Below are positions 27,133 through 48,968 of a stretch of 64,000 nucleotides of DNA, piece by piece; positions within the stretch are counted from its first letter, which is position 1; each line of letters opens with the position of its first letter. A model generated the notes under the pieces. That model saw nothing but the letters and a program-made list of their open reading frames with translations, was not told where the DNA came from and did no database searches. A program made the translations under genes and the position numbers. The DNA is taken from NCBI GenBank assembly GCA_036280655.1, contig DASUQI010000010.1:13104-77103 (forward strand), in the 5' to 3' direction. This stretch comes from Actinomycetota bacterium (GTDB lineage Bacteria; Actinomycetota; UBA4738; HRBIN12).

Positions 27133-27909
27133 TTACGGGGTCTGGTCGACCGTTCCGGTGAGCACGACCTCGCCGGCAGCGTCGAGCACCGTCACCGTCG
27201 AGTAGCCGGTGAGCGGCTGCGTCTGGAACTGACGGAAGACCTCGGCGCCGCCGTCGGAATCGAGTTCGGCGATGCGGCCGGCGCGGAGCACCTGACCGGC
27301 GTCGTTCGAAAGCTGCACGCGGTACGGGAGACGGTCCGGGTCGTCGCTCAGGCCGTTGGCGATCACGATCACGAAGTCGAGCATCGTGGGCGAGACGAGC
27401 TGCAGGACGGCCGCGCCTCCGGTGCCCCCGGCGGCGGGCGCGAGCTGACCGAGCCGCGCCCCCTCGTTGCTCGAGATCTCCTCGCCGGGAATCACCTGCG
27501 ACAGCACCACCTGGAACCGCTCGAGGGCGCGGGCCCGATCGCGTTCGGCCTGCTCCGCTCTGTCCGCGAACCGGTCGGCGCGACCCGCCATGACCGCGCC
27601 CCAGCCGAGGCTCGCCACCGCGACCATCGCGGCGACGATCGCGGCCGCCGCGGTTCTCGCGCGGCGGGGGGTGCCGGAGCCGCCGGCGACCCGCCGGACG
27701 CGGTCCACGACGCGCTCGTTCAGTCCCTGCGGGACCGATGCGGGAGTGAGCGAGTACGCGAGGATCGCGGCCGCCTGGCCGAGGTCCGAGGCCTCCTTGC
27801 GGCACCCGGCGCACCACTGGAGATGTCGCTCAACCTCTTTGCGGTCTTCGGGGGTGATCGTGTCTACCGCGAGCTCCGGAAGGAGCTCGCGGACCTCCAG
27901 GCAGGTCAC
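27133..27909 (-). CDS. Anti-sigma factor (zinc-finger ZAS-type N-terminus, single TM)
   Basis: HLQWCAGCR (HxxxCxxC) motif and a TM segment (AAAIVAAMVAVASLGWGAV). Its start overlaps the sigma gene stop (27906-27909). Confidence 0.7.
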   Translation of the reverse strand: MTCLEVRELLPELAVDTITPEDRKEVERHLQWCAGCRKEASDLGQAAAILAYSLTPASVPQGLNERVVDRVRRVAGGSGTPRRARTAAAAIVAAMVAVASLGWGAVMAGRADRFADRAEQAERDRARALERFQVVLSQVIPGEEISSNEGARLGQLAPAAGGTGGAAVLQLVSPTMLDFVIVIANGLSDDPDRLPYRVQLSNDAGQVLRAGRIAELDSDGGAEVFRQFQTQPLTGYSTVTVLDAAGEVVLTGTVDQTP

Positions 27910-28478
27910 GGCCGTTCCTTGTCCTGGTTCGCCCGTCGAACCTTGATGAGGGCGGTGCGGAGCCGCGTCTTGACGGTTCCGAGCGGCGTTCCGTCCGCCT
28001 CGGCGATCTCGCGGGCCGTGAAGCCGCCGAAGTACGCACGGGCGAGCAGCCGTTTCTCGGCATCGGACAGGGTCTCGAGCGCGCGGATCGCCGCGTCGCG
28101 CTCGATCAGCGGTTCGTCCTCGTCGGCCCCGATCACCTCGGGTACCTCGTCGACGAGCACGAGCTGCGGACGGGTGGCGCCGGTCTCGCGGCGCAGCCGG
28201 TCGACCGCCAGGTTATGGGCGATCGTCATGAGCCACGTTGACAGGCGTCCCCGGGAGGGGTCGAACCGCGCGGCCTTGCGCCACGCCGCGACGAAGACGT
28301 CCTGGGTCAATTCCTCCGCCGCCTCCGCGCTCCCGAGCAGCCGGAGGCCGAGCGTGAAGATCGGCCGCGCGTACCGCGCGTAGAGCGTTCGAACGGCCTC
28401 TTCGTTCCCGGCAAGGAGCGCCTCCACCAGCTGCTGCTCCTCGCGGGCGAGGAGCGGTCCGTCGGGGCGAGTGCTCAC
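27906..28478 (-). CDS. ECF (sigma-70 family) RNA polymerase sigma factor
   Basis: Region 2 (RLLGSAEAAEELTQDVFVAAWR) and region 4 HTH (TAREIAEADGTPLGTVKTRL). Confidence 0.85.
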   Translation of the reverse strand: MSTRPDGPLLAREEQQLVEALLAGNEEAVRTLYARYARPIFTLGLRLLGSAEAAEELTQDVFVAAWRKAARFDPSRGRLSTWLMTIAHNLAVDRLRRETGATRPQLVLVDEVPEVIGADEDEPLIERDAAIRALETLSDAEKRLLARAYFGGFTAREIAEADGTPLGTVKTRLRTALIKVRRANQDKERP

Positions 28479-28616
28479 CCGTCTCCTTCCCGGTATACGG
28501 CCGACGCGCGGCCGCGAGTTTTCTGCTGGACCTTCGTCATCATGCCATGCCTGTGGGCCATCCGGCCCTCGGACATCTGACCTGATTCGTCGCTGTCGGA
28601 CGTTCGGCCTGCGGTT

Positions 28617-29270
28617 TCAGTGCCCGTTCGACGAGAAATGCATGTAGTCCTTCGCTGAGGTCCAGTTCCCGCCCCACCCCCATCCGATCCGCCGGAACGC
28701 CCGAACGACCGCGTCCCCACGCACGACCATCCCCGGCCGGACGTCGGACCGGTCCACGTAGCGGCGGCCTCGGAGGGGGCGGACGTAGGAGCCGTCGACG
28801 TAGGGGTTCTCGACCGGGTTGAGGTCGATCGCTCGCCCGTAGGCGTGCTGGGACCAGGTCGTGGTCCCACGCACGTACCGGCAGTTGAACGCCGAGGTGT
28901 TGTCGTGGCGCATGGACGCCCGGTCGTCGGCGTCGAAGCTGTCGACGAGCCGGACCCGGTGGACCGCGAACCCCACCCGGTAGAGGCGCCGGAACACGCC
29001 GAGGGCCTCGTCGGCCCACCGGCGGTGCACGACGAGTCGGCCCCGCTGCGCCGTGCCGTCGAACCCGACGTAGGTCACCCGCACCTGCCGGAGGTTCCGG
29101 AGCGACACGGGACATCCCGGGCGCCACGAGGAGCCCGTCATCCACTCACGTGTCTCGCGGTCGAGCCGCGTCACCGAACCGGAGAAGGGGGGCAACTCCC
29201 CGGCGAGCGCGGGGATGGCCGAGGCGCCGAGCAACACGAGGAGCGCGACGCCGACGGCCGTGACCCGCAT
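28617..29270 (-). CDS. Peptidase M15 family (VanY/D-Ala-D-Ala carboxypeptidase-like), secreted
   Basis: Signal peptide, then HAYGRAIDLNP and DYMHFS zinc-ligand blocks typical of M15. Confidence 0.75.
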   Translation of the reverse strand: MRVTAVGVALLVLLGASAIPALAGELPPFSGSVTRLDRETREWMTGSSWRPGCPVSLRNLRQVRVTYVGFDGTAQRGRLVVHRRWADEALGVFRRLYRVGFAVHRVRLVDSFDADDRASMRHDNTSAFNCRYVRGTTTWSQHAYGRAIDLNPVENPYVDGSYVRPLRGRRYVDRSDVRPGMVVRGDAVVRAFRRIGWGWGGNWTSAKDYMHFSSNGH

Positions 29271-30674: not shown

Positions 30675-31552
30675 TCCCGTTGGCGATCGGCGTCGGCGTC
30701 GTGTTGCTGCTGCTCGTTCTGATCCTGCCCCAGGCGCTCCGGATCGTCCGCGAGTACCAGCGCCTGATGGTGTTCCGCCTGGGCCGTGCGATCGGCGCGA
30801 AGGGGCCGGGGCTCGTCTTCCTGATCCCGTTCATCGACAGGGGCGTGATGGTCGACCTGCGCGAGCTCTACCTCGAGATCCCCCACCAGACCGCGATCAC
30901 CGAGGACAACGCGACCATCTCCATCGACTTCATCGTGTTCTACCGCGTGGTCGACGCCGCGATGTCCGTGATCGAGGTCGGCAACTTCGCCGGCGCGGCG
31001 CAGAACATCGCGTCGACGACGCTGCGTTCGGTGGTCGGCGACATGAACCTCGACGAGGTGCTCGCCAAGCGCGAGGCGATGAACGAGATCCTGCGGGTGA
31101 AGCTCGACGAGGTGACCGAGCGCTGGGGCGTCAAGGTCACGAACGTCGAGATCCGCGAGATCATCCCGCCACCGGCGATCCAGGACGCGATGACCCGGCA
31201 GATGTCGGCCGAGCGCAACCGGCGCGCCGTCGTCACCGAGGCCGAGGGCACGAAGCAGGCCGCGATCACCGTGGCCGAGGGCAACAAGGCCTCCGCGATC
31301 CTGAACGCCGAGGGCGACCGCCAGGCCGCGATCCTCCGGGCCGAGGGGTTCGCGCTCGCGCTCACGAAGATCTACGAGTCGGCGTCCGGCGTCGACGCGA
31401 AGACGATGAGTCTGCAGTACCTCGAGGCGCTGAAGCAGATCGGCCAGTCGGCGTCGACGAAGTTCGTGATCCCGATGGAGTTCACGCAGCTGCTCTCGGG
31501 GCTGTCCGGGTTCGCGGAACGCAGCTTCGGCGACGGCAAGGGGAGCGCGTAG
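30671..31552 (+). CDS. SPFH/band-7 (stomatin-like) protein
   Basis: Classic NfeD-stomatin pair. Its GTG start overlaps the NfeD TGA (GTGA). SPFH core (IPHQTAITEDNATISIDFIVFYRV) and a coiled-coil tail. Confidence 0.85.
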   Translation: MIPLAIGVGVVLLLLVLILPQALRIVREYQRLMVFRLGRAIGAKGPGLVFLIPFIDRGVMVDLRELYLEIPHQTAITEDNATISIDFIVFYRVVDAAMSVIEVGNFAGAAQNIASTTLRSVVGDMNLDEVLAKREAMNEILRVKLDEVTERWGVKVTNVEIREIIPPPAIQDAMTRQMSAERNRRAVVTEAEGTKQAAITVAEGNKASAILNAEGDRQAAILRAEGFALALTKIYESASGVDAKTMSLQYLEALKQIGQSASTKFVIPMEFTQLLSGLSGFAERSFGDGKGSA

Positions 31553-31562
31553 GACCTCCCTC

Positions 31563-31591
31563 GGAACCCACGGCCCCCGCGCGGTGTAGAG
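31563..31591 (+). promoter_or_regulatory. ECF-sigma-type promoter GGAACC-N17-GTAGAG (autoregulatory, leaderless into sigma gene)
   Basis: GGAACC at 31563-31568, a 17-nt spacer, GTAGAG at 31586-31591; ATG of the ECF sigma gene at 31596. Identical architecture to the copy at 32943-32971. Confidence 0.6.
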
Positions 31592-31595
31592 CGGG

Positions 31596-32174
31596 ATGAC
31601 CGACCGAGTGGAGGGCCGTCCACTGGAGGACGTCGACCTTGCCCGTCTCGCGCGGGACGGTGACGTCCACGCCTACGGCGAGCTCGTGGAGCGGTACCGG
31701 GAGGTGGCGTTCCGAACGGCATGGCTGATCACCCGGAGCACGGCGGACGCGGAGGATGCCGCGCAGGAGGCCTTCGTGAAGGCCTTCTACGCGCTGGGGC
31801 GCTTCCGGGCCGGGGAGGCGTTCCGCCCGTGGGTCCTGCGCATCGTCGCGAACGAGGCGAAGAACCGCCGGCGCTCCGCGGGTCGCCGCGAGCGCCTTGC
31901 TCTGCGCGTCGCCGGCGAGCGCGGTCCGGGGGACGCGGCCCCGTCCCCCGAGACCGCGGCGGTCGAGGTCGAGCGGCGCGAAGACCTGCTGGCCGCGCTC
32001 GAACAGCTGCCGGAGCGCGACCGACTGGTGGTCGCGTACCGGTACCTGCTCGAGCTCTCAGAGTCCGAGACCGCCGAGGCGCTCGGGGTGCGGCCCGGGA
32101 CCGTGAAGTCGCGCCTGTCGCGGGCGCTCGGACGCTTGCGGACGGAGATGGACGCGGAGGCCTCGGATGGGTGA
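31596..32174 (+). CDS. ECF sigma factor (autoregulated, leaderless)
   Basis: Regions 2 and 4 (DAEDAAQEAFVKAF; SETAEALGVRPGTVKSRLSRA). A GGAACC-N17-GTAGAG promoter ends 4 nt before the ATG. Confidence 0.85.
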   Translation: MTDRVEGRPLEDVDLARLARDGDVHAYGELVERYREVAFRTAWLITRSTADAEDAAQEAFVKAFYALGRFRAGEAFRPWVLRIVANEAKNRRRSAGRRERLALRVAGERGPGDAAPSPETAAVEVERREDLLAALEQLPERDRLVVAYRYLLELSESETAEALGVRPGTVKSRLSRALGRLRTEMDAEASDG

Positions 32175-32937
32175 GGAGCGGAACATGAGCGAGGAGCGGC
32201 TGGTCGCGGCGCTCGCCGCGCTTGGGCCGGAGATCGCGTACCCGCCCACGCCCGCCCTCGTCCCCGCGGTCACGGCCCGACTCAGCGCGCCCCAGGCTCG
32301 AAGGCCGGTCGCTCCGGGTCGCGCGCGCTGGACCCGCCGGCGCATGCTCGTGCTCGTGGCCGTCGGCGTGCTCGCCGCCCTCGCGATCGCGGCGGCGGCC
32401 CGCCTCGCGATCGGCGCGTTCGAGGTCCGCGAGCAGCCGGCTTCGACGCCGAGCCCCTCGCAGTCGCCGGTGCAGCCCGGCGTGCTCGGCGAACCGGTGC
32501 CGCCGGAGGACGCGGCCGAGGCCGCGGGGTTCGAGCCCGCGCTGCCCGAGGGACCGCCGCCCGACGAGGTCTACGTGGTCGACAGTCCGTTCGGCGACCC
32601 GGGGCTCCTGTACGTGTGGATGCCGAGCGAGACCTACCCCCAGATCCCCGGGTCCGAGTGGGGCATGGTGCTGATGGCGTTCCAGGGCGACGCCGAGACC
32701 GTGATCAAGTACGTGGAGCGCTTCGAGGACGTCGAGGGGACCTCCGTCGAGGGCCGGTCGGCCTACTGGGTCGACGTGCCGCACGTGGTCGAGATCGAGA
32801 CCGAGGCCGGGTTCGAGACGTTCGCCGTGCGGGGCAACGTGCTCGTCTGGGAGGGCGAGGACGGTATCTCCTACCGGATGGAGACTGCGCTCGGCCTGGT
32901 CGAGGCGCTCGAGCTCGCGAGCTCCGCGACACGGTGA
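32167..32937 (+). CDS. Putative cognate anti-sigma factor / membrane protein with extracytoplasmic domain
   Basis: Overlaps the sigma gene 3' end; single TM (MLVLVAVGVLAALAIAAAARLAI), Pro-rich linker, C-terminal globular domain. Confidence 0.5.
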   Translation: MGEERNMSEERLVAALAALGPEIAYPPTPALVPAVTARLSAPQARRPVAPGRARWTRRRMLVLVAVGVLAALAIAAAARLAIGAFEVREQPASTPSPSQSPVQPGVLGEPVPPEDAAEAAGFEPALPEGPPPDEVYVVDSPFGDPGLLYVWMPSETYPQIPGSEWGMVLMAFQGDAETVIKYVERFEDVEGTSVEGRSAYWVDVPHVVEIETEAGFETFAVRGNVLVWEGEDGISYRMETALGLVEALELASSATR

Positions 32938-32942
32938 CCCGG

Positions 32943-32971
32943 GGAACCTCGCCGTTCCGGGCGGTGTAGAG
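32943..32971 (+). promoter_or_regulatory. Second copy of ECF-type promoter GGAACC-N17-GTAGAG upstream of cupredoxin-cupredoxin-TolB-like operon
   Basis: GGAACC 32943-32948, 17-nt spacer, GTAGAG 32966-32971. The 11-mer GCGGTGTAGAG is shared with the first copy. An RBS ggaaggaggg follows before ATG 33002. Confidence 0.6.
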
Positions 32972-33001
32972 GTTTCGACGCACGGACGGAAGGAGGGCTC
33001 C

Positions 33002-33565
33002 ATGACCCGTCGGATCGGGATCGCGCTCGCCGCGACGTTCCTGGTCGTCCTGCTCGTGCCCGCCGCCCCAGCGATCGCGGGCGGAGGCTGCCACACGGGC
33101 CCCACGCAGGGCGAAGGCGACACCGTCGAGCTCAAGGATGCGTGCTTCACCCCGTCGAACCTGTCGATCGACCCGGGCGAGTCGGTCACGTTCGTGAACC
33201 TTGACGACATCACCCACAACGTCGGCGGCGGCGGGTGGGGGTACTTCGAGGACATGTCGCAGGGCGACACCTTCACGGCCACGTTCGACGAGGCCGGGAC
33301 GTACCCGTACGCCTGCTCGTACCACCCGGGCATGACCGGCGCGGTCATCGTCGGCGGCGGCACCGGCGTGGGGAGCGGCGAGGCCATCACGGTCGATGCG
33401 TTCGAACAGCCCCAACCGTCGCCCGTGGTCGAGGTGCGGACGGTGTCCGAGCCCTCGAGCGGCACCACGGTGGCGATCGGCTGGCTCGCCGGCGCCGTGA
33501 TCGGCGTGGCGCTCGGGTTCGGGATCGCCGCGCTCGTGCGGCGGAACGCGCGGCCCATCGCGTAG
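33002..33565 (+). CDS. Membrane-anchored cupredoxin (type-1 blue copper protein), paralog 1
   Basis: Signal peptide, T1Cu ligand set His (ITHNV) ... Cys-x2-His-x2-Met (YACSYHPGM), C-terminal TM (IGWLAGAVIGVALGFGIAALV). An ECF-type promoter lies upstream. Confidence 0.7.
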   Translation: MTRRIGIALAATFLVVLLVPAAPAIAGGGCHTGPTQGEGDTVELKDACFTPSNLSIDPGESVTFVNLDDITHNVGGGGWGYFEDMSQGDTFTATFDEAGTYPYACSYHPGMTGAVIVGGGTGVGSGEAITVDAFEQPQPSPVVEVRTVSEPSSGTTVAIGWLAGAVIGVALGFGIAALVRRNARPIA

Positions 33566-33646
33566 GGAACGCCTCACAGGAGGAACGCTCGTCGGGAACC
33601 GCGACCCCCTCCGCCCGGTCTGCTCGGGTGGACCGGCGGAGAAGGG

Positions 33647-34252
33647 GTGGCGATGGTCCGGCGAGCGTTCCTCACCCTCGTGCTGAGCGGGATCGCGCTG
33701 GCGATCCCGGTGCCCGCCTCGGCGGGCGGCGGCGGGTGCTCCGAGGTCACCGAGGGCACCGGCACGACCGTCGAGATGCTCTACGCTTGCCTGACGCCGA
33801 CCCTGTTGCGCGTCCAGCCCGGCGAGACCGTCACGTTCGTGAACCGCGACGAGTTCCGGCACGTGATCTCGGGCTCCGGCTACGCCTGGAGCAGCGACGG
33901 GAACATGAAACCCGGCGAGGCGTTCACCGCGACGTTCCGCAACGACGGGGTGTACCCGTACCAGTGCTTCCTGCACCCCGGCATGGCGGGCGCCGTGATC
34001 GTGGGCGACGCAACCGGTCCCGGCGCCGCGGACCGAGGTGGCGTGTTCGTGGCTCCGTTCGAGGTCGAACAGCAGCCCCCCGAGGTCGTCTACGTGACCC
34101 GGGCGCCCCAACCGGGTGCGACGTCGACGTCATCCGGATCGCCGGTTGCGCTTGTCGGCGGCATCCTGGTCGGCGTCGCGGTCGGGGCGATCGTGACGCT
34201 CGGTGTGCGGAGCTCGGCCGCGCGGCGCCGCATGAGAGACGTGACGACCTGA
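33647..34252 (+). CDS. Membrane-anchored cupredoxin, paralog 2
   Basis: Same architecture as paralog 1: FRHVI ... YQCFLHPGM, and a C-terminal TM (LVGGILVGVAVGAIVTLGV). Confidence 0.7.
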   Translation: MAMVRRAFLTLVLSGIALAIPVPASAGGGGCSEVTEGTGTTVEMLYACLTPTLLRVQPGETVTFVNRDEFRHVISGSGYAWSSDGNMKPGEAFTATFRNDGVYPYQCFLHPGMAGAVIVGDATGPGAADRGGVFVAPFEVEQQPPEVVYVTRAPQPGATSTSSGSPVALVGGILVGVAVGAIVTLGVRSSAARRRMRDVTT

Positions 34253-36063
34253 TGGCGACCCGCGCGACCTCCCTCCCCTTCCCCAGGGTCCGGCGCCGGC
34301 ACGTCCGCGTTCGGCACCCGGCGCCGGTGGTCGGCGTCCTCCTCGTGCTCGTGTCGGTGGCCTCGCTCGCGACCGCGCTCGGCAGGCTGCCGGTCGAGGC
34401 CTCCCCTCCGCGCGCCGAACAGGTTGCAGGGCTCGCCGCGCTGCGGCCACCCGCGTCGCTCGACACGATCCCCGGGATCGAGGAGGCGGCGTGGCCGAGG
34501 AGCCGGTATCCGGTGGGCGGCTTCGCGTTCGTCCGGTGCACGAACCTGTGGACGGCCCACGCCGACGGCTCCGCGCCTCGTCGCATCCTGACGATGCCGG
34601 GCATCTCGTCGCCGACCTTCTCCCCCGATGGACGGACGATCGCGTTCCTCGCCGCGGGAACGGCCGGGACCGAGATCTGGCTCGCGGCGGCCGACGGCTC
34701 GGTCGCGCGGCGGCTCGGGACGATCGCGGTGGACGGCGAACCGGTCCTGACGAACGTCGGCCCGCTCGCGTGGTCGCCGGACGGCACCCGGCTCGCGTTC
34801 TCGCTGATGCCGGCCGCCCTGCGCGGCGGCACGCCGAGCCACTGGGCTCTGCGGCTGGACGCCGGGATGTTCGACCCGATCGGCGAGGGCGGCGACGAAC
34901 CCGTCTGGCTCGGCCGCCAGGTCCTCGTGGCCGGGCGGGACGGCGGCGGGGTGGACAACCTCTGGGGCGACCGGTGGACCGCACGACGGCTGTCGAAGCT
35001 CGGGGACGTCGAGGCGCTCGCGTTCGCGCCGGGCTGGTGGGCCTGGGAGTGGGAGAAGCAGACGGCGGTGCTCGCCGACGACGGCGACGAGCTCGCGCTC
35101 TCCTGGCAGAAGCGGCCGTGGGGCGTCGGCTCCGATCTCGAGACGGCCCCGCCCGCCGGATACGCGTTCGACCCGGGCAGCGGGCTCGCGATCCTGCAGC
35201 ACGGGACCGTCGCCGTGACGCTCCTCGACCCATCGGGCGAACGCGATCTCGGGCTCTTCGACCCGAGCTCGTTCACGTGGGAGACGCTGGACTACGCGTG
35301 GGACGCGGCCGGGAGCCCGGCCCCGGCGGTCGTCGGCTCCATCGAGGAGCAGCGCGCGGTCGAGCTCGCGCGCGACGTGCTCTGGAGCCTCGGACGGCCG
35401 GATCGGGTCCAAGCCGACCTGCTGCTCGCCGAGCCGCTGGATCCGGGCCTCATCCCGTTCGCGCACGTCGGCTCCGCGATCGACGACGCGGTGCGCGAGG
35501 GCGATGCGTGGACGATCCCCGCGCACACCTATGGCCGGATGGGCGCCGCGATCGGTACCCGCGACGTAACGGTGACGGTTCAGGGGGTGGACGGACGGCT
35601 CGCGGCGACGCTCGCGGCGGCCGGTCCGATCGTCCGCCTCCGAACCGTGGACGACGCGGCCCGCTTCCTCGAACGCGTCCTCACCGTCCCGGTGATCGCC
35701 CCCGCGGGGCTCCCCGAGGGCACCCGACTCGCGTCGCGCTGGGCGGTCGAGGCCTGGTCGTGGCGGGGTAGGACGACCGGGTCGCTGCACGTCGTCGCGC
35801 CCGGGATCGGCCGGCTCGACTTCTTCTACGGGGACGGAGGGCTCGGCTGCGGCGCGTACCCGGTGCCGCTCGAGCTCGGGACCGGGACCCAGGCGATCGT
35901 CCAGGACCCCGAGATGAGCGACGGCTACAACGCGATCGCCTGGCCCGCGGCGCCGAAGGACTCGAGCGGTCCCTTCGGCATCTCGGCGAACACCTCGACC
36001 GAGACGCTCGTCGCGATCGCGACCGCGATGGATGCCTCGAGGCGCTCGACCCGGTCAGACTAG
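34252..36063 (+). CDS. TolB-like beta-propeller (PD40/WD40-like) periplasmic protein with N-terminal TM
   Basis: The ATG overlaps the cupredoxin-2 stop. PD40 repeats (SPTFSPDGRTIAF, LAWSPDGTRLAF). 603 aa. Confidence 0.65.
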   Translation: MATRATSLPFPRVRRRHVRVRHPAPVVGVLLVLVSVASLATALGRLPVEASPPRAEQVAGLAALRPPASLDTIPGIEEAAWPRSRYPVGGFAFVRCTNLWTAHADGSAPRRILTMPGISSPTFSPDGRTIAFLAAGTAGTEIWLAAADGSVARRLGTIAVDGEPVLTNVGPLAWSPDGTRLAFSLMPAALRGGTPSHWALRLDAGMFDPIGEGGDEPVWLGRQVLVAGRDGGGVDNLWGDRWTARRLSKLGDVEALAFAPGWWAWEWEKQTAVLADDGDELALSWQKRPWGVGSDLETAPPAGYAFDPGSGLAILQHGTVAVTLLDPSGERDLGLFDPSSFTWETLDYAWDAAGSPAPAVVGSIEEQRAVELARDVLWSLGRPDRVQADLLLAEPLDPGLIPFAHVGSAIDDAVREGDAWTIPAHTYGRMGAAIGTRDVTVTVQGVDGRLAATLAAAGPIVRLRTVDDAARFLERVLTVPVIAPAGLPEGTRLASRWAVEAWSWRGRTTGSLHVVAPGIGRLDFFYGDGGLGCGAYPVPLELGTGTQAIVQDPEMSDGYNAIAWPAAPKDSSGPFGISANTSTETLVAIATAMDASRRSTRSD

Positions 36064-36685
36064 GCCGGCAGCGGGATCCGCGCCTGCTGGAGCTGCAGCG
36101 TGAAGTCGTGCGGGTTCGAGCTTGCGCCGAGGGCCGCCTCGACCGAGACCTTCCCGGCCTTCACGAGACCGAGCAGGCTCTGGTCGAACGTGCTCAGCAC
36201 GAGGCCGCGCGGCTCGTCGGCAAGCTGGCTGATCACGTCGGGCAGCCCCATCTCGTCGAAACCCGGGCCGCCGAACCGCAGCTTGCGAGCACCGCCGAGT
36301 ACGAGCCGCGCTGCCGGAACGCGTTCACCCGGAACCGACCGACGCCCGCGAGCGAGTACGCGAAGTCGATCTCGCCCGATGTCTCGAGCCGCTCACGCCG
36401 TTCGGGCGGGACGATCGCCTCGACGATCGTGGTCGCCTCGTCGTTGCCGAGCGGCGCGTGGTCGAGCGGGATCAGCGCGCCCGCGTCGCGGATCTTCGGC
36501 GGCGTGCCGACCTTGATGTGCAGGTCCGAGGCCTCGCGGCGGACGACCTCAGCGAGCCACGCATCGAACTCGTCGAGCACGGTCTGGCCGGGTCGTTCGT
36601 GGATCTCGGCGAGGTGGACGGTGTCACGGTCGTGAGCCTGATGCTGGGTCGGGCCGTCGCCCTCGGGCCGGTCTGGTTCGATCAT
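36060..36685 (-). pseudogene. pilT: pilT (type IV pilus retraction ATPase) remnant - internally deleted and frameshifted
   Basis: ORF 36233..36685 encodes the PilT N-domain (ASDLHIKVGTPPKIR ... GEIDFAYSLAGVGRFRVNAFRQRGSYSAV). ORF 36060..36251, in another frame, encodes the segment just before Walker A (GLPDVISQLADEPRGLVL) fused directly to the PilT C-terminus (STFDQSLLGLVKAGKVS...). The ~180-aa ATPase core (Walker A/B, His box) is absent. Confidence 0.7.
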
Positions 36686-47466: not shown

Positions 47467-48832
47467 CCGCCCGCGAGAGCAGCGCCGCCACGCCGAACGC
47501 GACGAGGAAGCTCGGGATGCTCGCGCCGAGTCGCGAGTCGAACAGCGGGAACGGCAGGCCGAGCGCCCCGAACGCGTCGCCGAGCACATCTACCCAGCCG
47601 TCGGGTCCCGTCGGCACGCTCCACTGGTAGACGACAAAGCCGAGTACCCACGGCACGAACGCGGGCCACCGCACCCCGCTCCGCTCGAACAGCGCGGCCT
47701 CCCCGTAGCGGCCGCGGCAGCGCACGAAGTAGTCGGCGAGTAGGACCGCGGCGAGCGGCACGAACACCGACCCGATCAGGAACAGGAACGTCTCGTAGCG
47801 CTCGACCGTGAAGGCGAGCGCGAGGATGAGGCCGACCGTGCCCACGATCAGGATCAGCGGCGCCTGGCGCGCCTTGGGCGCGACGTTCCGCGCCGAGACC
47901 GCGGCCGAGTAGATGTCGGCGAACGCGTTGTCGCTCTCGCCGACGAGGAGCGCGAGCAGCACGATCCCGCCCCCGGCGAGGAACACGATCCCGCCGCCGA
48001 TCCCCACGGCGTCCGCGCCCACCCCGGTCACGAGCACGAGCAGTGCGCCGAGCGCGTAGAACCACGCGTTGCCGACCGCGTAGCCGGCGTACGTCCCGAT
48101 CGCGGCCCGCGAGCCCGGCCGCGCGAACCGGCTATAGTCGGCGGCGAGCGGCAGCCACGAGATCGGCATCACGATCACGAGGTCGACGGCGAGCCAGAAC
48201 GGCAGACCGCCCGCGGCCGGCGTCTCCCAGATCGCCCACCCACTCCCGGCCCGCAGCACGTCGACCGTGATCCACACGGCCGCGCCGAGCAACACGTAGA
48301 TCCCGAACCGCTGGAGCCAGCGTCGAACGACGAAGACCGGCCCGCCGAGCGCGAGCGCGGTGCACACGACGGCGACGACGACGATCCAGAACGCGCGGGA
48401 CCCGAACCCGAACAGGCGCTCCGACGCGACGCTCGCGACCTCGCCCATCGCCCAGAACTCGACCGCCGTCCACCCGACGAGCTGCACGACGTTGATCACC
48501 GACGGGACGAACGAGCCACGCTCCCCCAGGACCGGCCGGAGCAAGACCATCGTCGGCACGCCCTCGCGCTGGCCGGCGAGCGCGACGAGCGCGAGCGGGA
48601 CGCACCCGATCAGCGACCCCACCGCGATCGCGAGCAGCGCCTGCGGCGGCCCGAGCGCGGGCACGAGCAGCGCGCCGGTCACCATCACGAGCAGGCCGAT
48701 CGATAGGTCGAACCACAGGATCGCCGCGTCGAGGCCGCCGAGTCGCCGTTCTGCGACGGGGATCGGGCGGAGGCCGGGCGCGGCGTCCTCGCGCCCGAGG
48801 ATCCGCTCGATGCGTTGCGTGACGCTCGCCAC
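47444..48832 (-). CDS. NCS1-family nucleobase/cytosine/allantoin:cation symporter
   Basis: 12-TM permease with NCS1/CodB-like blocks (WFDLSIGLLVMVTGALLVP ... NAFADIYSAAVS). Confidence 0.8.
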   Translation of the reverse strand: MASVTQRIERILGREDAAPGLRPIPVAERRLGGLDAAILWFDLSIGLLVMVTGALLVPALGPPQALLAIAVGSLIGCVPLALVALAGQREGVPTMVLLRPVLGERGSFVPSVINVVQLVGWTAVEFWAMGEVASVASERLFGFGSRAFWIVVVAVVCTALALGGPVFVVRRWLQRFGIYVLLGAAVWITVDVLRAGSGWAIWETPAAGGLPFWLAVDLVIVMPISWLPLAADYSRFARPGSRAAIGTYAGYAVGNAWFYALGALLVLVTGVGADAVGIGGGIVFLAGGGIVLLALLVGESDNAFADIYSAAVSARNVAPKARQAPLILIVGTVGLILALAFTVERYETFLFLIGSVFVPLAAVLLADYFVRCRGRYGEAALFERSGVRWPAFVPWVLGFVVYQWSVPTGPDGWVDVLGDAFGALGLPFPLFDSRLGASIPSFLVAFGVAALLSRAATRRPRD

Positions 48833-48840
48833 GGGTGCTC

Positions 48841-48888
48841 CCTCCGCCGGTCTGAACCGGTTCAGGTTCCAAGGGTCGCCGGCGGAGG
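48841..48888. promoter_or_regulatory. Nested inverted repeat / stem-loop in 5' region of NCS1 transporter gene
   Basis: Outer 10-bp arms cctccgccgg / ccggcggagg (48841-48850 / 48879-48888) enclose a perfect 14-bp palindrome ctgaaccggttcag (48852-48865), about 10-50 nt upstream of the transporter start (48832, minus strand). Confidence 0.4.
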
Positions 48889-48968
48889 ATCGTGTCAGCC
48901 GGCCTCTCAGCCCGTGCCCCGGACTCCCCTGCTTCGGGTCCGATGGTACCGCCCGCTACGATGCCCGG

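Follow-up and report, generated by a model that had tools for sequence, protein, structure and literature searches.

Two copies of one bipartite motif, GGAACC-N17-GTAGAG, stand close together in a 64,000-nucleotide (nt) stretch of an Actinomycetota genome (GenBank assembly GCA_036280655.1, contig DASUQI010000010.1, positions 13,104 to 77,103; this whole stretch is called the window below). One copy precedes the gene of a sigma factor belonging to the extracytoplasmic function (ECF) class and the other precedes the gene of a copper protein, cupredoxin 1. Which genes do the two copies serve, and is the locus a copper or redox regulon, as a sequence-only reading of the window had proposed? Our analysis favours, with a probability of about 0.8, a compact module of an ECF sigma factor and its anti-sigma factor with a regulon of two promoters (P1 and P2). 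A second cupredoxin and a PD40 protein would lie behind a separate, older promoter-like element (P3).

A motif repeated before the sigma gene and before cupredoxin 1

The two motif copies picked out by the sequence-only reading were recovered at 31563-31591 and 32943-32971, both on the + strand, and have the 11-mer GCGGTGTAGAG in common. When both strands of the 64 kb were searched with one mismatch allowed, exactly these 2 matches were obtained. Dinucleotide-preserving shuffles gave an expectation of 0.10, and none of 100 shuffles reached two matches. The relaxed pattern GGAAC-N16-KBGTA again returned just the same two sites in the window. The G+C content is about 70-76% around the locus, and the uniform base composition of the window gives no hint of DNA acquired recently from elsewhere. 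The features of the locus are as follows.

31563..31591, + strand: predicted promoter P1 (autoregulatory, sigma gene); -35 GGAACC at 31563-31568, -10 region GGTGTA at 31583-31588 with core TGTA
31596..32174, + strand: ECF (group 4) sigma factor, 192 amino acids; Pfam Sigma70_r2, Sigma70_r4_2 and Sigma70_ECF
32167..32937, + strand: presumed anti-sigma factor, single-pass membrane protein, 256 amino acids; assigned by synteny, architecture and a weak anti-sigma model match
32943..32971, + strand: predicted promoter P2; -35 GGAACC at 32943-32948, GGTGTA at 32963-32968
33002..33565, + strand: cupredoxin 1; Pfam Copper-bind (46.6 bits) and Cupredoxin_1
33595..33623, + strand: promoter-like element P3, GGAACC-N17-GTCTGC, in the 81-nt gap before cupredoxin 2
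33647..34252, + strand: cupredoxin 2; Pfam Copper-bind (27.6 bits)
34252..36063, + strand: PD40 protein, membrane-anchored with a TolB-like propeller, 603 amino acids; apparently an accessory gene

P1 ends 4 nt before the sigma ATG at 31596. P2 ends 30 nt before the cupredoxin 1 ATG at 33002, and an AGGAGG ribosome-binding site lies in this leader. The sigma and anti-sigma genes overlap by 8 nt, and the genes of cupredoxin 2 and the PD40 protein by 1 nt (TGATG).

The conservation of the motif was followed through orthologous loci. For the anti-sigma protein about 120 close homologs were found, and those with a source name came from Actinomycetota metagenome bins. Fifteen metagenomic loci were collected via this protein, and further loci by exact-protein look-up. 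As far as each contig reaches, sigma, anti-sigma and a cupredoxin 1 ortholog were adjacent in all loci, with an anti-sigma identity of 46-86%. Both motif copies were kept in register as GGAACC, 13 variable bases and CGGTGTAGA(G/C). The exceptions were L017, with GAACC at both -35 sites (P2: GAGAACC), and L023, with small variants upstream of sigma. P1 was kept in the loci whose contig reaches the site, with a spacer of variable sequence and fixed length, and stood 4 nt before a sigma start codon that was mostly ATG (GTG in L010 and L022). P2 was found between the anti-sigma stop and the cupredoxin start in 17 of the 17 loci examined. A bipartite promoter classically leaves such a footprint, with conserved blocks set apart by a spacer whose length is fixed while its sequence varies, and the expectation that the pair of motifs would persist in orthologous loci was borne out. 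No motif copy was found in L028 and L029, two loci without the sigma module. Judged by adjacency, the conserved unit is sigma, anti-sigma and one cupredoxin.

One orthologous locus has an irregular gene call. At 4832-6220 of L027 (on a 1.0 Mb contig), the first 500 nt of the anti-sigma region were uncalled, and the rest of this region was called together with cupredoxin 1 as one 295-amino-acid product. The fused call is probably due to a frameshift or an assembly error in the metagenome bin.

A wider survey started from the sigma factor. No relative turned up when genomes were scanned with the single anti-sigma protein, and the first alignment of this protein varied too much to serve as a seed, so the sigma alignment was used instead. 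Species-representative genomes scanned with degenerate peptides from this alignment yielded 80 loci with a sigma identity of 38-90%. They belong to Actinomycetota (including Gaiellaceae, Solirubrobacterales and Thermoleophilaceae), Candidatus Dormiibacterota, Chloroflexota and Thermomicrobiales, with a few further loci in bins labelled with other phyla. In these 80 loci (681,664 nt) all 86 occurrences of the strict motif GGAAC-N15-GGTGTA were on the sigma strand, against 0 on the opposite one. Of 78 genome loci, 52 carried the strict motif no further than 130 nt upstream of the sigma match. Relaxed variants (GGCGTA, GCTGTA, TTGGTA and GTTGTA, with the common core (T/C)GTA) were present in 15 more, which defines GGAAC(C) and GTA as the invariant parts. 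The -10 core TGTA lies 16 nt after GGAACC.

A second copy of the motif directly followed the anti-sigma gene in 25 of the 65 loci with enough downstream sequence. The open reading frame (ORF) behind it had a signal-peptide-like hydrophobic N-terminus wherever it was callable. This ORF encoded a cupredoxin of the window's type in 10 loci (to which L030 may be added, whose contig ends just past the motif), a small protein with a GGWA start, weak YtkA-like similarity and usually a C-terminal anchor in 7 loci, and a lipoprotein of about 415 amino acids in another 7. The latter has faint PD40/WD40-type matches and is probably a beta-propeller. In L065 the target consisted of two small lipoproteins. 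These results point to a common plan of the family: the sigma and anti-sigma genes are joined by the gene of one exported target next to them, which follows a copy of the sigma factor's promoter. In the window's clade the cupredoxin is the apparent target. In the Thermomicrobiales locus L069 (6435-7650), the ORF behind the second promoter copy fuses a YtkA-like GGWA domain to a C-terminal cupredoxin, which links the two commonest target types of the family.

The ECF sigma factors of Bacillus subtilis share an AAC in the -35 and a CGT in the -10 element, and the autoregulatory promoter of sigW has CGTA as its selective -10 (PMC5758882). GGAACC-N16-TGTA directly upstream of the sigma gene, a predicted autoregulatory promoter, is thus a close variant of a well-known ECF promoter type rather than an exotic one. 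The GTAGAG -10 had been taken as a hint of an uncommon ECF group. This idea did not hold, since the core (T/C)GTA resembles the CGTA of sigma-W and relatives with this promoter occur in at least three phyla.

The start of the sigma gene and the presumed anti-sigma factor

The sigma protein was matched by Sigma70_r2 (54 bits), Sigma70_r4_2 (60 bits) and Sigma70_ECF (22.5 versus a cut-off of 21.1), as well as by the sigma70-ECF model TIGR02937 (102.8 bits versus a cut-off of 42.9). With regions sigma-2 and sigma-4, no region 3 or 1.1 and 192 residues, it belongs to the ECF (group 4) class. NCBIfam gave generic ECF matches only, and the protein stayed below every equivalog or subfamily cut-off; the best named models were PRK11922 (121 versus 204) and SigE-fam_strep (116 versus 141.55). 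Among solved structures, E. coli sigma-E and B. subtilis SigW come closest. The family may already be catalogued in the ECF Hub classification (Casas-Pastor et al. 2021, PMC7826278).

The sequence-only reading had claimed a leaderless, autoregulated sigma transcript. In the window's clade the first in-frame sigma start codon lies 7 nt after the A of GTA, and the N-terminal peptide MTDRVEGRPL is conserved. Among 58 genome loci, the distance from GTA to the start codon had its mode at 10 nt (17 loci), was at most 12 nt in 38 and at most 24 nt in 57, so that there is rarely room for a ribosome-binding site. No such site was found before ATG 31596 or before GTG 31608. ECF promoters usually initiate several bases downstream of the -10. 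Together with the 7-nt geometry, this would place the start codon at, or within a few bases of, the 5' end of the transcript. A leaderless or almost leaderless sigma transcript is therefore likely, as the spacing suggests. The distance of 4 nt between P1 and the ATG and the family-wide lack of room for a ribosome-binding site agree with the claim, and its leaderless part stands as likely rather than proven.

The main competitor is that the sigma mRNA has a leader, either because translation starts at GTG 31608 (Val5) behind about 12 nt, or because transcription reads through from the NfeD and SPFH genes. The sigma ORF begins at the equivalent GTGGAGGGCCG in a majority of the distant relatives, there are loci without any start codon at the ATG position (L021 and L037), and the SPFH gene ends just 43 nt upstream on the same strand. 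However, an ATG or GTG was found exactly 7 nt after GTA in 10 of 11 readable metagenomic loci (9 nt in L023), and it was found again in L030-L034, with the peptide MTDR conserved. Neither candidate start codon has a ribosome-binding site. On balance a leadered sigma mRNA is rather doubtful, and the leaderless start at ATG 31596 is preferred.

The gene overlapping the end of the sigma gene had been proposed to encode a single-pass membrane protein and likely anti-sigma factor, and its domain layout, its synteny and a weak model match all fit this proposal. An alternative start at ATG 32185, which also has a ribosome-binding site, would give 250 amino acids. No Pfam match above threshold was obtained. 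The AlphaFold model (31 homologs) had a mean predicted local distance difference test score (pLDDT) of 78, with values above 90 in most of the outer domain. In the model, two short helices at the N-terminus are followed by a membrane helix (about residues 57-82), a Pro/Ser-rich linker that is disordered, and an outer domain rich in beta-structure that ends in a helix. This outer domain has an RseB/MucB-like fold (LolA-like half-barrel, DUF4367-type). When 1.84 billion cluster representatives were searched with the anti-sigma profile, 3611 clusters were found at E ≤ 1e-3; the best 150 of them were mostly 240-290 amino acids long and matched nearly the whole profile, and 3 of 10 sampled distant members reached the Pfam cut-off for DUF4367. 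The single-pass architecture fits an anti-sigma factor, which would bind the sigma factor.

The invariant residues of the anti-sigma family include one His, no Cys and no Met. Without conserved metal ligands, direct copper sensing is unsupported, and neither copper nor redox sensing is indicated. The modelled fold hints at a ligand that is hydrophobic or a peptide, and at an envelope signal of a general kind.

Cupredoxins, P3 and the accessory genes

Cupredoxin 1, an amicyanin-like type-1 copper protein, carries an RR-containing signal peptide at its N-terminus and a membrane anchor at its C-terminus. Among solved chains it comes closest to a type-1 copper domain protein (5fc9), plastocyanin and amicyanin. 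Both cupredoxins score above the Pfam Copper-bind cut-off of 21.2 bits. Cupredoxin 2 is about 44% identical to cupredoxin 1 and has the same ligand set and a C-terminal anchor; by its similarity it is a lineage-specific paralogue. An alternative start at 33653 would give 199 amino acids. As the sequence-only reading had expected, the ligands are conserved in homologs: the upstream His and Cys-x2-His-x2-Met were kept in the cupredoxin 1 orthologs wherever the sequence reaches them, and in 3 of 3 sequences of cupredoxin 2. The Cys-x2-His-x2-Met loop has the amicyanin length. Both proteins thus carry the type-1 ligands, and copper binding is predicted for both. Further traits are common to the orthologs of cupredoxin 1 (L009-L038): RR in the signal peptide, GGGCH at the mature N-terminus, a second conserved Cys (DAC[F/P]TP) and a C-terminal membrane helix. 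The RR signal peptide, the second Cys and the helix are shared by cupredoxin 2, whose mature N-terminus is GGGGC, without the His of GGGCH. The second conserved Cys of the cupredoxins could serve a disulfide or a second metal site.

The gene content behind the anti-sigma gene differed between loci.

L022 (2.77 Mb contig) and L023: cupredoxin 1 only, then an intact pilT-like gene
L025: cupredoxins 1 and 2
L026: cupredoxins 1 and 2, then the start of a downstream ORF at the contig end
L018: cupredoxin 1 and PD40
P0002 contig and L027: all three genes
L028: PD40 flanked by the SPFH and pilT genes; sigma, anti-sigma and cupredoxin all missing from the locus

By this distribution, cupredoxin 2 and the PD40 gene are accessory, later additions. 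P3, in the gap before cupredoxin 2, can also be read as GGAACC-N15-CGGTC, and its -10 type differs from that of P1 and P2. At equal spacing the -10 four-mer is GGTC in P3 versus TGTA in P1 and P2, which parallels the distinction between CGTC and CGTA in B. subtilis (PMC5758882). In L025, L026 and L027 P3 was kept ahead of cupredoxin 2, in L018 and L028 ahead of PD40. From these positions, P3 looks like the original PD40 promoter, behind which cupredoxin 2 was inserted. It may be read by this sigma factor or by another ECF sigma factor, or its genes may be reached by read-through from P2.

These observations bear on a second alternative, namely that copy 2 drives a fixed cupredoxin-cupredoxin-TolB-like operon and that the locus is a self-contained copper/redox regulon with an extracytoplasmic sensor. 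Copy 2 does precede three genes on the same strand, two of which share 1 nt, the genes are not separated by any terminator-like site, and both cupredoxins carry full type-1 ligand sets. However, the gene content after cupredoxin 1 varies (L022, L023, L025, L018 and L028), and the 81-nt gap before cupredoxin 2 contains its own conserved promoter-like element. The presumed sensor has an RseB/MucB-like domain without conserved Cys or Met, and in sister clades the same module drives YtkA-like proteins or propeller lipoproteins without a recognisable copper-binding domain. A fixed copper operon is thus unlikely.

Several claims of the sequence-only reading change accordingly. A leadered gene behind copy 2 was confirmed for cupredoxin 1 with its AGGAGG leader, but cupredoxin 2 and PD40 lie behind P3. 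The genes of the proposed operon were said to overlap one another, which is true of cupredoxin 2 and PD40 but not of the two cupredoxins. The triad of two cupredoxins and PD40 did not co-occur with the sigma/anti-sigma pair as a unit, for relatives carry cupredoxin 1 alone, with cupredoxin 2, or with PD40. A copper or redox sensing regulon finds no support in an RseB/MucB-like domain with a single conserved His and no conserved Cys or Met.

The N-terminal anchor and TolB-like propeller described for the PD40 protein were both found again: it has an N-terminal helix, a TolB-like six-bladed beta-propeller and two beta-rich C-terminal domains. The latter make up the C-terminal 240 residues (about 365-603; 35350-36063) and were confidently folded in the model. 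No family was assigned to these domains, as the propeller dominated the structure search. A relation of this C-terminus to the anti-sigma outer domain was considered and dropped, as BLASTP gave nothing significant. Cys96 and Cys533 of the PD40 protein are invariant.

The surroundings contain further features. Upstream of sigma lie the genes of NfeD, SPFH, an M15 peptidase and a SigK-like sigma factor with a zf-HC2 anti-sigma factor; the gene calls agree with the NfeD/SPFH genes and the second sigma/anti-sigma pair named before. The SigK-like sigma gene is at 27906-28478 and its paired zf-HC2 anti-sigma gene at 27133-27909. The region upstream of this sigma gene (28479-28620, - strand) has its own conserved blocks, GGCATGGCATGATG and CGTCGGCCGTATACCGGGAAGGAGACGG, which recur across loci and are unrelated to the GGAACC-N17-GTAGAG motif. 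Assignment of P3 to this sigma factor was rejected, because no P3-type motif lies upstream of it and the conserved pattern there is a different one. On the other side, a pilT-like secretion ATPase gene adjoining PD40 (36063-36685, - strand) is a remnant. The only parts of it that align are residues 1-124, 125-176 (in another frame) and 342-385, and the ATPase core is missing; intact orthologs have 382-429 amino acids. A thiamine pyrophosphate (TPP) riboswitch was found at 48822-48940 on the - strand (Rfam RF00059, 56.5 bits, above the gathering score). Scans of 31300-36400 for intrinsic terminators and sigma-70 promoters found none on the + strand, and an Rfam search of the region gave no match.

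Proposed mechanism and comparison with known systems

Taken together, we propose the following course of events. Sigma and anti-sigma, whose genes overlap by the observed 8 nt, would be co-translated from one transcript, and the anti-sigma factor would sequester sigma at the membrane, as synteny and architecture suggest. By analogy with RseA/RseB and RsiW, an envelope signal acting via the RseB-like domain, or proteolysis of the anti-sigma factor, may free the sigma factor. Free sigma would then read P1 and P2 through GGAACC-N16-TGTA, to which co-occurrence, strand specificity and ECF-type geometry point. P1 would provide positive autoregulation via a transcript with no or almost no leader, and P2 a leadered mRNA for the membrane-tethered type-1 blue copper protein, cupredoxin 1. 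Outside the membrane, cupredoxin 1 may act as an electron carrier or in copper handling, to judge by its ligand set only.

The promoter reading of P1 and P2 is carried by the motif occurring twice against an expectation of 0.10, its in-register conservation, the 86 versus 0 strand counts and its absence from L028 and L029. Several points weigh against the proposed module. The presumed start sites and sigma dependence of P1 and P2 are deduced only from co-occurrence. About 11 of the 78 genome loci have no motif, and these are mostly the most distant ones or those in which the protein match begins well inside the gene. In L021 and L037, which lack a start codon at the conserved position, translation would begin at a GTG 19 nt after GTA (12 nt further on), behind a short leader, and the window's sigma gene could likewise start at GTG 31608. 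The anti-sigma protein matches the NCBIfam anti-sigma model NF052375 weakly (E 4e-4, 20 bits versus a cut-off of 100), and its cytoplasmic part is short, with two helices before the membrane helix. Finally, as there is no terminator between cupredoxins 1 and 2, read-through from P2 into cupredoxin 2 and PD40 is possible.

The last alternative would make the motif the operator of some unrelated DNA-binding regulator, or else an element at the RNA level. It is very improbable: any conserved bipartite element could in principle bind a regulator, and there is no direct evidence for one, but neither dyad nor direct-repeat symmetry is seen in the two blocks. Of these, the first is GGAAC, an ECF hallmark, and the second closes with a TGTA that resembles CGTA, at a spacing typical of ECF promoters (PMC5758882). 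The strand specificity is strict, the place of the motif is always shortly before a start codon, it accompanies the sigma gene through three phyla, and the Rfam search of the region gave no match.

ECF sigma/anti-sigma pairs that are autoregulated and have a target next to them are textbook systems, and no new regulatory mechanism is claimed. What is new is the footprinted promoter of a widespread ECF family of uncultured lineages, placed against the start codon family-wide, together with a predicted RseB-like domain fused to an anti-sigma factor and a blue copper protein as the apparent dedicated target in one clade. A search of the literature linking ECF sigma factors with cupredoxins, or DUF4367 with anti-sigma factors, found nothing specific. 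The promoter GGAACC-N16-(T/C)GTA can now be assigned, as a prediction, to an ECF family common in uncultured soil Actinomycetota, Dormibacterota and Chloroflexota, whose members usually seem to control one adjacent exported protein. The set of sigma, anti-sigma and promoter might serve as an orthogonal expression switch, and the RseB-like fused sensor tied to a tethered blue copper protein is a lead on the role of cupredoxins in these organisms. More speculatively, and with low confidence, the three-phylum family with its near-leaderless sigma genes may use a fused RseB-like lipid or lipoprotein sensor to control a single dedicated exported protein, possibly the ligand that resets the sensor. 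If true, envelope-integrity sensing would be coupled to electron transfer or copper handling outside the membrane.

The protein products differ from their best-known counterparts. Cupredoxin 1 shares with amicyanin and plastocyanin the cupredoxin fold, the His and Cys-x2-His-x2-Met ligands and the amicyanin loop length. Unlike them, it has a C-terminal anchor, an N-terminal GGGCH with an extra Cys and a predicted dedicated ECF control, and no methylamine dehydrogenase, nitrite reductase or oxidase partner gene is present in the locus. The PD40 protein is not a TolB of the Tol-Pal system, as the full-length model gave 30 bits versus a cut-off of 343. In contrast to TolB, a membrane helix replaces the N-domain, about 240 residues are added at the C-terminus, and no tol-pal genes lie nearby.

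Copper-sensing ECF sigma factors of the CorE type have a C-terminal Cys-rich metal-sensing extension and no anti-sigma factor. The window's sigma factor does not belong to this type: it ends about 7 residues after region 4, its alignment has no conserved cysteine, and a membrane anti-sigma candidate is present. In E. coli sigma-E/RseA/RseB and P. aeruginosa AlgU/MucA/MucB, the domain that resembles our outer domain (about 9% identity to MucB and RseB) is a separate protein, whereas here it is fused to the anti-sigma factor, and no rseB, rseC or degS/rseP-type genes lie nearby. The layout of an N-terminal segment, a membrane helix and an outer domain is common with the distant profile members that are DUF4367 proteins (PF14285), although the window's anti-sigma protein itself falls below every Pfam threshold.

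The closest parallel is B. subtilis sigma-W/RsiW (ECF01), along with other autoregulated ECF sigma/anti-sigma operons. Both systems have a sigma factor with regions 2 and 4 only and a co-transcribed gene for a single-pass anti-sigma factor, here a presumed one, and in both an autoregulatory promoter, here a predicted one, with an AAC -35 and a (C)GTA-type -10 is repeated before targets (PMC5758882). The similarity to SigW is at the family level only (phmmer E 5.5e-18; NCBIfam SigW 92 bits versus a cut-off of 209). Unlike in sigma-W, the -35 reads GGAACC here and the -10 is the TGTA of GGTGTA; the promoter lies right against the start codon, the outer domain of the presumed anti-sigma factor resembles RseB, and the visible regulon is a single neighbouring gene.

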